A stretch of DNA of 54,583 nt from Minisyncoccota bacterium. GTDB taxonomy: Bacteria; Patescibacteriota; Minisyncoccia; Phycocordibacterales; UBA9973. The notes beneath the pieces are model-generated. The model was given only the letters and a program-made list of their open reading frames with translations. It had not been told where the DNA came from and did no database searches. The translations under genes and the position numbers were made by a program. The stretch covers positions 1-54,583 of the forward strand of contig DATDXF010000026.1 of assembly GCA_036517215.1 (NCBI GenBank), read 5' to 3'. This document shows, piece by piece, positions 4,869 to 11,765 of this stretch. Each line of letters begins with the position of its first letter. Position 1 is the stretch's first letter.

Positions 4869-7800
4869 ATGCAAAAAGCGACATCTCGTCCGAAGAAGTA
4901 TTTCTCGCGTTACAAGAAACCACTGGTGGAATTTCCGAATTTGATAGAAGCCCAGGTCAAGAGCTTTAAGTGGCTCATCGAGACCGGGATCGGGGAAGTC
5001 TTCAAAGAATTTTCTCCTATTATAGATTACTCCGGAAAAAAGTTTCAGCTGGAATTCACTTCTTTTTCCCTGGGTGAATCCAAGACCGACGAAAATAATT
5101 CCAAGATAAACAAACTCTCTTACCAAGGGCTCCTAAAGGCGCGGGTAAAATTGACGAATAAAATTTTGGGTACGGTAAAAGAACAAGAGATTTTCATGTC
5201 CGAGCTTCCTTTGATGACCCCGCACGGAACTTTCATAATCAACGGCGTAGAAAGAGTCATCGTACCGCAGCTTGCTAGGAGTTTCGGAGTTTTCTTTACC
5301 GAGTCCGAAACCAAGGGCACCCGGTATTTCGGAGCCAAGATTATTCCCGCCCGCGGAGTCTGGATTGAGATAGAGTCCGAATCCGACGGAGGCATTTACA
5401 TAAGAATAGACAAAAAGAGGAAATTTCCGGCTACCGCGCTCCTGCGGGCCATGGGGTATGAAACGGATGAAATGATATTGAAAGCCTTCTCCAAAGATCC
5501 TACAGCAGAAGAAAACATCAAGGCTTCGCTCGCGAAAGACGGCATAAAGAGCGTGAATGACGCATATATTGAAATTTATAAGCGTCTTCGGGACGGAGAT
5601 ATGGCCACCGCGGATAACGCCAAAGAGTTCATAAATTCTTTGTTTACCCCTGAACGATACGACCTTTCGCCGGTTGGACGATTCAGGTTCAACCAGCGTT
5701 TCGGAAAAGATATGGGTGAAGCGGAAATGGCCCGACGGGTTATTTCCAAAGAAGACCTGGTAACCGTAATTGCCAACATTATTGCTTTAAATAATACTCC
5801 GGGCGCCAAGGCGGACGATATAGACCACCTGGGGCAAAGGCGTGTACGTTTCGTGGGGGAAATTCTCCAGCAAAAAGTGCGCACCGGAATGATGCAGATT
5901 AAAAGAAATATTCAGGACAGAATGTCCATTATCGACGTGGATACAGCTATGCCGATTGCCATAATAAACCAGCGTCCGCTCCAGGCCCGCATAAAAGAAT
6001 TCTTTACTACCAACCAGCTCTCTCAATTCATGGCGCAAGAAAACGTGCTTTACGAAATAGAGCACCTTCGCACTCTCTCCGCCTTAGGGCCCGGAGGTCT
6101 TACCCGCGAGCGTGCGGGCCTTGAAGTTCGCGATGTGCACCCTTCCCACTACGGAAGAGTTTGTCCTATCCATACGCCGGAAGGACCGAACATCGGTCTT
6201 ATTCTTCACCTTTCCACTTACGCGAAGATAAATGATTTCGGAATCATCGAGACTCCTTATGCCAAAGTTAAAAACGGAAAAATAACTTCCGAGATAGTTT
6301 ACTTAAACGCGCTTGAAGAAGAAAAATACAACATCGCGCATGCCGGAATTCCTTATGACGAGAACGGCAAGATAACCAAAGACAAAGTGGAAGCAAGGGT
6401 AAAGACAGAGCCGGGCATGATTCCCGCCGAACAAGTTGACTTCATAGACGTAGCTCCGAACCAGGCATTCTCAATCGCCACTTCCATGATTCCGTTTTTG
6501 GAACACAACAACGCGAACCGCGCGCTCATGGGCAGCAACATGCAGAAGCAGGCCGTGCCTTGCGTGCTTCCGGAAATGCCTTTGGTTGCGACCGGGATTG
6601 AGGAGCTGGCTTCCAGGGACGGAGGCAGGCTTGTCATCGCTCTTGAAGACGGAGTCGTAACTTATCTTGACGCGAAAAAAATAGTGGTAAAGGGCCTCGC
6701 TCGTAAGCCTCGCCCGTCTAGCTATGGCCAAGGGGCTACGGCCGAGGGTAAATCCGACAAAGAACATACTTACGCGCTCATTAACTTCCTCCGAAACAAC
6801 AATTTTGCCGTGTTTCACCAGCGTCCGCTTGTGAATGTAGGCGATAAAGTAAAGAAAGGCGACGTGCTCGCCGATACTTCAAGCACAGTAGGCGGGCAGA
6901 TATCCCTTGGTCAGAATATTTTCGTGGCCTTTCTGTCGTGGTCCGGGTCAACTTACGAGGACGCAATAATTATTTCCGAACGCCTGGTAAAAAAGAGCAA
7001 ATTCACTTCCGTGTATCTGGAAGAATTCACCTGCGTGGTTCGGGACACCAAGCTTGGGCCGGAAATCACCACTCGCGATATACCAAACGTAGGCGAGCTA
7101 AAACTTAAAGACCTGGACGAAGACGGCATAGTTCGCATCGGCGCGGAAGTAAGGGAAAACGATATTTTAGTGGGTAAAATTACTCCGAAAGGAGAGACCG
7201 AACTTACACCGGAAGAAAGGCTTTTGCGTTCTATCTTTGCCGAAAAAGCCCGCGACGTTAAAGACACCTCTCTTCGAATGGAGCACGGCAAGCGTGGACG
7301 AATCATCGGGGTAAAAATATTCTCCCGTGACTTGGGACACACGCTTGAAGCGGGGATTATAAAAAAAATAGTTATCGAAGTCGCTCAGATAAGAAATATT
7401 TCGGTCGGAGATAAGCTTTCCGGACGACACGGAAACAAAGGAGTCATCTCCATGATACTGCCGGAAGAAGATATGCCTTATACGAAAGACGGTACCCCGG
7501 TAGACATAATTCTGTCACCGCTTGGCGTGCCTTCGCGTATGAACCTCGGGCAGATACTTGAAATGCATCTCGGCATGGCGGCAAACAGTTTGGGGTACCA
7601 GGCCATTGTTCCTCCTTTCCTGGGCGCGAAGCACGAAGAAATAAGAGAAGAGCTCGTAAAAGCCGGGTTGCCGGAAAACGGCAGGCTAAAACTCTTCGAC
7701 GGGCGAACTGGCGAGGCTTTCCAGCAGGATGTTGCTGTGGGATATATGTATATGCTCAAGTTGCACCACATGGTGGAAGACAAGATACACATGCGTTCTA

Positions 7801-11100: not shown

Positions 11101-11765
11101 CAAAAGAAAACGTCAGAGAAAAAGTAATTAAAGTGTTGTCAACCAGCAAGGAAGACGGCCTCGCCCATAGGTCTACGGCCGAGGGAAAGAAAAATGAAAT
11201 GGAGTATACGGTTGCTTTCCGCCGAACGCCGATAGTAAAAGCGGGGGACAAAGTCAAAAAAGGTCAATTGCTTACTGATGGTTCCGCCGACATAGCGGAA
11301 ATGTTCAAGTTGGGCAATAAAGAGCTGGTGGAAGAATATATCATAGAAGAAATAAACAAAGTTTACGAACTACAAAGCGCTTCGATTTCTAGAAAACACA
11401 CCGAGATAATAATCCGCCAAATGTTCTCACGTAGAAAGATAAAGGATGCCGGAGAGACAAACTTCTCCGCGGGCGACATAGTTGAAAATACGGCTTTCAT
11501 AGAAGAAAACGCGAGGGTAGAAGACATAAACGGCAAGAAAGCAACCGCGGAAACAGTGGTGCTAGGTATTACTGAAGTATCTCTCAGAACAAAGAGCTGG
11601 CTCTCTGCCGCATCGTTCCAAAACACAAACCGGGTTCTGATTGAAAACGCCATCAAGGGTGGGGTGGATTCTCTTCGGGGCTTGAAAGAAAATGTCATCA
11701 TAGGGCGGTTAATTCCAGCCGGAACTGGGTTCAATAGCAAAGTGCTCTCGACACAGGAGGAATAA
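8118..11765 (+). CDS. rpoC: DNA-directed RNA polymerase subunit beta'
   Basis: 1215 aa: zinc motif [34 protein letters not shown] active site, trigger-loop region. Confidence 0.98.
   Translation: [1215 protein letters not shown]
11158..11185. repeat. Short copy of the same G+C-rich palindromic element, embedded in frame in rpoC
   Basis: GCCTCGCCC-ATAGGT-CTACGGCCGAGGG. The 9-mer and 13-mer termini are identical to the rpoB copy. Confidence 0.65.

Follow-up and report, generated by a model that had tools for sequence, protein, structure and literature searches.

In-Frame Insertion of a 27-bp Palindromic Element in rpoB and rpoC of a Minisyncoccota Bacterium

Two Insertions in the Genes for RNA Polymerase

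Contig DATDXF010000026.1 of GenBank assembly GCA_036517215.1, analyzed here over its full 54,583 nt and called the window, comes from a Minisyncoccota bacterium, an ultra-small groundwater organism with a Paceibacteria/Nomurabacteria-type genome (Candidate Phyla Radiation [CPR]/Patescibacteria). On its plus strand lie rpoB (4869–8099, RNA polymerase β subunit, 1076 aa) and rpoC (8118–11765, β′ subunit, 1215 aa), both recognized from their open reading frames (ORFs) and translations and matching the corresponding subunits in the Protein Data Bank. The RpoB of the window is 88–92% identical to RpoB of Paceibacteria/Nomurabacteria metagenome-assembled genomes (MAGs) by tblastn, and up to ~94% identical in the alignment used for the tree described below. 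The subject of this study is a short G+C-rich element present in frame in both genes.

According to the original prediction, rpoB and rpoC share the two ends of this element. The shared strings are present, GCCTCGCCC at 6707–6715 and 11158–11166 and CTACGGCCGAGGG at 6736–6748 and 11173–11185, and they exceed chance. Allowing up to two mismatches, we counted four occurrences of the 13-mer CTACGGCCGAGGG in the window where 0.62 would be expected, and a count of four was not attained in any of 100 shuffles. The two extra matches are at 6722, inside rpoB, and at 36454–36466 on the minus strand, where an adjoining left arm with one mismatch makes up a third copy. Copies in the window and in relatives were located by Hamming scans. 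Both genes are read through the insert in frame and both translations end it in TAEGK, as had been proposed.

The rpoC copy is single (CCTCGCCCATAGGTCTACGGCCGAGGG, 27 nt, 11159–11185, plus strand), follows a G at 11158 and encodes LAHRSTAEG in the codon context GAC GG/C CTC GCC CAT AGG TCT ACG GCC GAG GG/A AAG, with slashes at the junctions. The rpoB insert (6695–6748) comprises 54 extra nucleotides, that is, two units. The left half of an outer copy (13 nt, CCTCGCTCGTAAG, 6695–6707, plus strand), placed by codon alignment with 11 relatives, is preceded by the conserved G at 6694; a complete inner copy (27 nt, CCTCGCCCGTCTAGCTATGGCCAAGGG, 6708–6734, plus strand) matches the family pattern exactly and encodes PRPSSYGQG; and the right half of the outer copy (14 nt, GCTACGGCCGAGGG, 6735–6748, plus strand) completes the peptide LARK...ATAEG. 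The inner copy thus splits the outer one between positions 13 and 14, at the dyad center, and is read in a different frame. The two genes were expected to hold copies of one element differing in the length of the center; the common termini bear this out, and the rpoB insert proved to be two nested copies rather than one copy with a long center.

The diverged third copy (CATCGCCCGTAGTGCTACTGCCGAGGG, 36454–36480, minus strand) is preceded by a G at 36481 and has two mismatches to the 28-nt family pattern. Its plus-strand reading, PLGSSTTGDA, forms part of the C-terminal tail of a 1449-aa Peptidase_S74-domain surface protein (32172–36521). This protein has collagen-like GPQ repeats and a Peptidase_S74 (endosialidase chaperone) domain at residues 1185–1239 (Pfam), and the tail holding the copy is rich in Pro and Glu. 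The sequence after the rpoB copy is TAAATCC and that after the rpoC copy AAAGAAA, so neither has the T-run directly 3′ that marks an intrinsic terminator. Local G+C spikes were rejected as a diagnostic of the element, the window having 61 of them.

A 27-bp Unit and Its Insertion Rule

Public metagenome contigs, scanned with the pattern CCTYGCYCRTNNNNCTAYGGCCRMGGG (~20 bits), yielded at least 118 further stretches with an exact match from several independent projects, against a chance expectation of ~2 that is a rough estimate with an assumed database size. No match was found in a scan of viral contigs. Among the matches listed, 124 of 125 distinct copies have G as the base 5′ of the element, a position outside the searched pattern, and 44 of the 125 have AGGG as the free center. 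Because the unsearched 5′ base is nearly always G and the free center often AGGG, we regard these matches as a real family, and the further copies without which the original prediction would have been in doubt are therefore numerous.

The consensus is G followed by CCTCGCCCGTAGGGCTAYGGCCGAGGG, a 26-bp imperfect palindrome plus one G or, written with its variable position, G followed by CCTCGCCCGTAGGGCTA(C/T)GGCCGAGGG. Arms of 12 nt each, CCTCGCCCGTAG and CTACGGCCGAGG, with one C·C mismatch between them, flank the center GG and are followed by the final G. The consensus folds into a hairpin of 5 bp, a 1×1 mismatch and 5 bp, at −8.6 kcal/mol (z −2.2) for one strand and −12 kcal/mol (z −4.3) for the other, with conserved GTAG and CTAC in the upper stem. 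Variants at paired positions (G·T 59, A·C 21, C·A 28) are balanced across strands and across coding and noncoding copies; with wobble and mismatch variants so balanced, there is no sign of a constraint on RNA structure from one strand, and such a constraint was rejected.

Five insertion events were verified against empty sites, each adding exactly 27 nt: rpoC, the outer and the inner rpoB copy, dnaG of loci L030 and L024, and the second nested copy in L091. In the orientation of the element the empty sites are AAAGG/A (rpoB), GACGG/T (rpoC), CTTAG/A (dnaG) and GTAGG/G (the element's own center), and for an intergenic hairpin loop we infer GAAGG/C. Position −2 is variable (G 46, T 38, A 24, and C 17 of the 125 distinct copies listed), and a GG crossover by a serine recombinase was ruled out on the ground that only 46 copies have G there. 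Nesting at the dyad center occurs in the window, L091, L093, and L190, and tandem copies with a single shared G between them in L081 and L151. What is inserted is a discrete unit of 27 bp, or nine codons, which directly follows a G and can lie in either orientation; it is most simply described as a 26-bp palindrome with a one-base G duplication, or as a 27-bp unit placed 3′ of a G.

Filled and Empty Sites among Relatives

We took 80 loci around rpoB and rpoC from named genomes and built codon alignments with 11 relatives. All 11–13 closest relatives lack the 27 nt in rpoC and the 54 nt in rpoB at exact codon boundaries (9 and 18 codons). The empty rpoC site of 11 relatives reads GAC GGN AAG, in which the window has an exact insertion of 27 nt, or nine codons, and the empty rpoB site reads AAA GGN AAR. 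Comparison with relatives had been suggested as a way of telling insertions from ancestral peptide segments, and the precise absence of both inserts speaks for insertion.

At the rpoB site, L030 has only CCTTGCCCATAAGGCTACGGCCGAGGG, and the inner copy of the window is the extra 27 nt relative to it. The uninterrupted outer copy, CCT(C/T)GCCCATAAGGCTACGGCCGAGGG, is found in L030, L159, and L164; the site is filled in these and in the window and empty in 16 other genomes. A tree of RpoB made without the insert columns requires at least three gains or losses at this site, with, for example, L164 the sister of the empty L024 at 100% support. Of the rpoC sites, those of the window and L091 are filled and those of closer relatives empty; the outer copy in L091 holds two further nested copies, one of them inverted. 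L030 and L024, which are not sisters on the RpoB tree, have dnaG copies identical at 27 of 27 positions and of an otherwise unique variant, which favors descent at that site. Which genomes have the rpoB, rpoC, and dnaG loops filled and which have them empty thus does not agree with the phylogeny. Across 1.3 Mb around rpoB of the 80 relatives, copies are present only in L024 and L030, so the family is patchy rather than universal.

The dnaG site of L164 has a decayed copy, CGT GGA TAT GAT CAA ATT GGT AAG AT (peptide RGYDQIGKI), that retains 18 of 27 positions, an example of how drift can turn an insert into ordinary loop sequence. Other inserts were seen at the same places. In L044 (14068–14712), rpoC has a different insert of ~30 residues in the same β′ loop, ending in STTMGEAGLG and resembling what the element encodes on its opposite strand. 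In L030 a second in-frame palindrome, TPARNASHSDAGG, unrelated to the first, lies immediately 3′ of the rpoB copy (2295–2335), and the RNase R loop holds another repeat in the window and the 27-bp element in L164. From the β′ insert of L044, the second palindrome of L030, and the RNase R loop it follows that particular surface loops recurrently gather different elements. In dnaG of L030 (~8800–8860) there is also a near-perfect in-frame palindrome with the peptide VGRPDSGRPTSDK, of which the opposite strand would encode almost the same peptide.

Host Genes and Reading Frames in Metagenomes

Of 124 copies among the matches listed, 72 (58%) lie deep inside ORFs of at least 150 codons, compared with 66% of positions drawn at random from those contigs; the element does not avoid coding sequence. 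Pfam assigns the host genes to PurL (two copies in one gene), RpoC, FtsK (the same linker in both orientations), UvrA, RNase R, a VirD4-like ATPase, PBP2, class I tRNA synthetases (Ile/Val-type), ArgRS, DnaG, NusA, MurD, PNPase, a trypsin-like protease, thioredoxin-reductase-like enzymes, and KsgA, with copies found both ways round. The contigs of the family range in GC content from 0.30 to 0.66 and the consensus is nearly constant throughout; exact copies in contigs of 55–66% G+C include those of L104 (GC 0.66), L142, L140, L082, and L145, for example in KsgA of L104 and NusA of L082.

The listed copies in long ORFs occupy the frames that we designate opp1 (46), same1 (9), opp0 (7), same2 (6), and same0 (4), and none the stop-containing frame. 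Their peptides are LG(R/H)S(P/Q/L)TGEA (46 copies, e.g., LGRSPTGEA), ASPVGLWPR (9), PSAIALRAR (7), LA(R/H)(R/K)ATAEG (6, the rpoC reading), and PRPSGYGQG (4, the inner rpoB reading). The PRPSGYGQG frame is occupied only by center variants that have no TAG, and the frame that always contains TAG is never used. This is the pattern that a filter against stop codons and disruptive peptides would leave. The element survives only in open frames, and it can land at the hairpin tip of another copy.

Protein homology had been doubted as the source of the match between rpoB and rpoC, and rightly: the same DNA is found in unrelated genes and read in five frames and both orientations, which rules homology out as the cause of the nucleotide match. 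An ancestral or convergent protein feature, in which TAEGK-type loops were selected and the nucleotide match was a by-product, is accordingly highly improbable. Both inserts do end in TAEGK and lie in homologous sandwich-barrel domains; against this, the segments are missing in relatives, the inner and outer rpoB copies are in different frames, and elsewhere the DNA yields peptides as unrelated as LGRSPTGEA, ASPVGLWPR, PRPSGYGQG, and PSAIALRAR.

Thirteen intergenic copies among the matches listed are followed by CGGTTTTTTG (...GAGGGCGGTTTTTTG). Most of them belong to a recurrent cassette, AAATCGCC-AAGAAGG-[27-nt element]-CGGTTTTTTGGTAGAAT-(5–7 nt)-ATG, carried by L086, L110 (two copies), L115, L155, L171, L176, L178, and others. 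To judge from its sequence, the cassette joins what look like a terminator hairpin, an extended −10-like box, and a nearly leaderless start codon. Its outer stem, ATCGCC...GGCGAT, is also the second half of repeat family D1 of the window, described below. An Rfam search of four cassette-bearing loci returned only tRNAs, and no family covers the cassette.

Place of the Inserts in the Polymerase and Reality of the Assembly

Alignment to solved structures places the β insert at about Escherichia coli β 736–750, a segment of variable length between the strands that precede the conserved GDxLAD...GQN block, and the β′ insert at about E. coli β′ 1185–1195, another segment of variable length, which we take to be in or near the jaw. 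AlphaFold models of the two fragments, with mean pLDDT of 51 and 65, have low to moderate overall quality. For β′, the insert coincides with the only internal segment below 50 pLDDT (residues 94–106) and forms a coil between strands 84–90 and 109–114, the domain otherwise scoring 70–91; in the β model it is a coil between strands 70–75 and 98–102, with residues 87–94 below 50 pLDDT. The suggestion that the inserts lie in regions resembling surface loops agrees both with the variable loops of solved RNA polymerases and with these low-confidence coils between β-strands.

Logan contigs from independent runs cross the rpoB insert with no differences. At the rpoC copy they break or branch, and those of two runs pass through it and end just beyond. 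Summed Logan depth is ~10-fold higher over both elements, as expected for a repeat held by many community members. That the similarity is due to chance or to an assembly artifact can be practically dismissed: short G+C-rich matches are not rare in a heterogeneous genome with 61 G+C spikes in the window alone, but no shuffle in 100 reached the observed count, several independent projects supply at least 118 exact matches, the copies are in frame with the unsearched flanking G in 124 of 125 of those listed, and contigs from separate runs cross the rpoB insert unchanged and, for two runs, pass through the rpoC copy.

Comparison with Known Elements

Rickettsia palindromic elements (RPEs), with a length of about 100–150 bp, encode a conserved peptide of some 30–50 residues. 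Like them, the 27-bp element is a dispersed palindrome found in frame inside unrelated essential genes and read through as a tolerated extra peptide, is present or absent between relatives, and has no transposase of its own. The term "RPE-like" in the original prediction is therefore apt as an analogy of behavior, although not as membership, given 27 bp against ~150 bp and a different host phylum. As summarized in PMC10969869, the RPEs of Ogata et al. (2000) are ~150 bp long, form ten families, and are restricted to Rickettsia. Compared by description rather than by sequence, the present element is five times shorter, always spans nine codons, nests in its own center, and occurs in Patescibacteria-type contigs. 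Descent from RPEs is unlikely because the host is a Paceibacteria/Nomurabacteria MAG.

Repetitive extragenic palindromic (REP) sequences and bacterial interspersed mosaic elements (BIMEs) are extragenic by definition, with GTAG located 5′ of the stem, and occur frequently as inverted doublets (REPINs); the REP-associated tyrosine transposases (RAYTs) are Y1 transposases like those of the insertion sequences IS200/IS605. With at least 118 copies of an imperfect, G+C-rich palindrome in the range of 20–40 nt, the consensus conforms to a REP-type palindrome, and it shares with REPs the GTAG tetranucleotide, many copies per genome, nonautonomy, and a presumed handling as folded single strands. It differs in being 58% intragenic among the matches listed (72 of 124 copies within long ORFs) rather than extragenic, in having GTAG/CTAC at the top of the stem, and in multicopy forms that are nested or tandem.

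The yeast mitochondrial gene var1 has an optional in-frame GC cluster. Such clusters, like the element studied here, invade a compact A+T-rich genome, have no known enzyme for their mobility, show short G-containing junction repeats, and are occasionally tolerated in coding sequence. In the account of Bouchier (2009) given in PMC5558958, they are short (30–50 bp) G+C-rich palindromes. They differ from the element in being organellar, mostly intergenic, of several unrelated families, and of a length not fixed to a multiple of three.

Bacterial MITEs (miniature transposable elements with inverted repeats) such as Correia, ERIC, and RUP (PMC10969869) are ~50–500 bp long, with terminal inverted repeats from a parent insertion sequence and a target duplication of at least 2 bp. 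They too are nonautonomous inverted repeats, capable of in-frame fusion with host ORFs and of serving as terminators or promoters. The element, in contrast, is a single 26-bp palindrome in a 27-bp unit, its junctions share only one G (a duplication of at most 1 bp), and it has no known parent. By analogy, then, it would be closest to RPEs in behavior and to REPs and yeast GC clusters in size and form, and it departs from RPEs in length, from REPs in its location, and from MITEs in size and target duplication. A search of the literature, covering 8.4 million papers, found nothing published on such elements in Patescibacteria/CPR.

Nature of the Element and Alternative Explanations

We consider it probable that the rpoB and rpoC inserts are copies of one dispersed, nonautonomous DNA element, and in RNA polymerase they are most likely selfish or neutral passengers. 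Copying may take place in trans by a structure-specific enzyme acting on the folded hairpin, probably as single-stranded DNA, in the manner of REP/RAYT or IS200/IS605 systems; an enzyme is preferred over replication error because the ends are invariant and the loop tips of other copies are targeted. With no stop in five of its six frames, the unit lets the host gene be read through, and it occurs at sites where nine extra residues are tolerated, here the loop between two β-strands of the beta sandwich-barrel and the β′ jaw region. Copies that disrupt a protein would be purged, so that only permissive loops would keep them. Insertion of the element into its own center produced the double nested insert of rpoB, and, between genes, the subset with a T-run resembles terminator hairpins. 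Homing or co-conversion was ruled out, as the flanks diverge right up to the junctions.

Several points weigh against passengers moved in this way. Copies at the same site are identical at 24–27 of 27 positions while their 300-nt flanks are only 67–77% identical, a conservation too high for a passive passenger that may reflect constraint at the nucleotide level or recurrent insertion. All rpoB copies have the rarer center CATAAGG/CGTAAGG, which argues for common descent with losses at that site and not for independent hits. The arms, proposed to pair, do so in the family consensus, but the copies in the window are decayed, and their folding does not surpass that of shuffles (z −0.25 to +0.7). 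Mobility is suggested by comparison between species, and Logan contigs of the sample contain no empty-site allele, which is weak evidence as contigs drop rare variants. No mobilizing enzyme was identified, a whole-genome search not having been made, and we know of no characterized transposase that a single-G target or 1-bp duplication would match. The comparisons are compatible both with insertions that are old, constrained at the nucleotide level, and at times released or precisely lost, and with repeated insertion into hot, permissive sites.

More speculatively, and in our judgment with a minor share of the probability, the unit may be a codon-neutral module that is recognized by a factor conserved in Patescibacteria, inserted into, and perhaps removed from, single-stranded hairpin tips and G sites, and held near constant in nucleotide sequence within essential genes such as rpoB, rpoC, and dnaG. 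If so, it would be the smallest known mobile DNA unit and would represent a novel class of cis-element within genes, kept in place by the host or an undescribed recombinase.

Somewhat less probable is a host-maintained cis-element, that is, a functional DNA or RNA site (protein-binding, or a pause, processing, or stability hairpin) selected even within coding sequence, its spread being secondary. The contrast between same-site copies (24–27 of 27) and flanks (67–77% over 300 nt) fits such a site, as do the unique dnaG variant shared at 27 of 27 positions by the nonsister L030 and L024, the near-constant consensus over the whole GC range, and the recurrence of the intergenic form in a terminator-plus-promoter-like cassette. 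Yet the dnaG copy of L164 has freely decayed to 18 of 27, most relatives do well with no copy at these sites, variation at paired positions (G·T 59, A·C 21, C·A 28) favors neither strand and is the same in coding and noncoding copies, and placement in random housekeeping genes in both orientations has no functional logic.

Palindromes are known to provoke template switching, and the element could have been copied with no transposase at all, by switching during replication or repair between a stalled 3′ end whose last base is G and a hairpin copy at another site. We rate this slightly lower still. The junctions have G microhomology of 1–3 nt (rpoB 3, rpoC 2, nested copy 1, dnaG 1) and no transposase was seen, the whole genome not having been searched for one; ragged ends and variable lengths would be expected, however, whereas the boundaries are invariant in the 125 distinct copies listed, the flanking G is present in 124 of them, and five of five verified events are exactly +27 nt.

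Taken as a nonautonomous mobile element, the 27-bp unit would extend a phenomenon familiar from textbooks as a Rickettsia curiosity, selfish DNA in frame within essential genes, to a different and very large radiation of reduced genomes, where a nine-codon unit reaches even both catalytic subunits of RNA polymerase. Its points of interest are its minimal size, exact codon neutrality, self-nesting, location in rpoB and rpoC, and nucleotide conservation. The sequence GCCTCGCCCGTAGGGCTAYGGCCGAGGG provides a concrete search string for finding the enzyme that moves 27-bp hairpins, for dating insertions, and for studying the origin of surface loops in conserved proteins. Annotators and phylogeneticists should be aware that an indel specific to a lineage in Patescibacteria rpoB or rpoC can stem from recurrent insertion of the element and that such indels are hence unreliable synapomorphies.

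Other G+C-Rich Repeats in the Window

The window holds a further repeat family, D1 (TTTCCGCCTCTACGGCGGATCGCCGATGAGGCGATTTT), which forms a strong hairpin (−13.4 kcal/mol, z −4.75) and has copies at 228–265, 3704–3740, 4795–4832, and 16848–16885 and a half copy at 1973–2010. In the RNase R gene, the copy at 228–265 adds 11 codons in frame (AIRRRGGNLVD) by comparison with six relatives, that at 3704–3740 encodes EIARAAIRRTGGK in TrmD, and that at 4795–4832 lies just upstream of the rpoB start codon. A KhpA-like gene (3047–3415) has a G+C spike at 3335–3373 (TCTACCGGTAGCGGCCTCGGCGCTGCGCCGTCAACACTG) encoding STGSGLGAAPSTL near the C-terminus, in a region that is variable in relatives. TrmD (3469–4170) has, at 4057–4080, another short G+C-rich in-frame insert of different sequence, the eight-codon insertion PFGGAQGK (CCCTTCGGCGGAGCTCAGGGCAAG), which is missing in 11 of 11 relatives.

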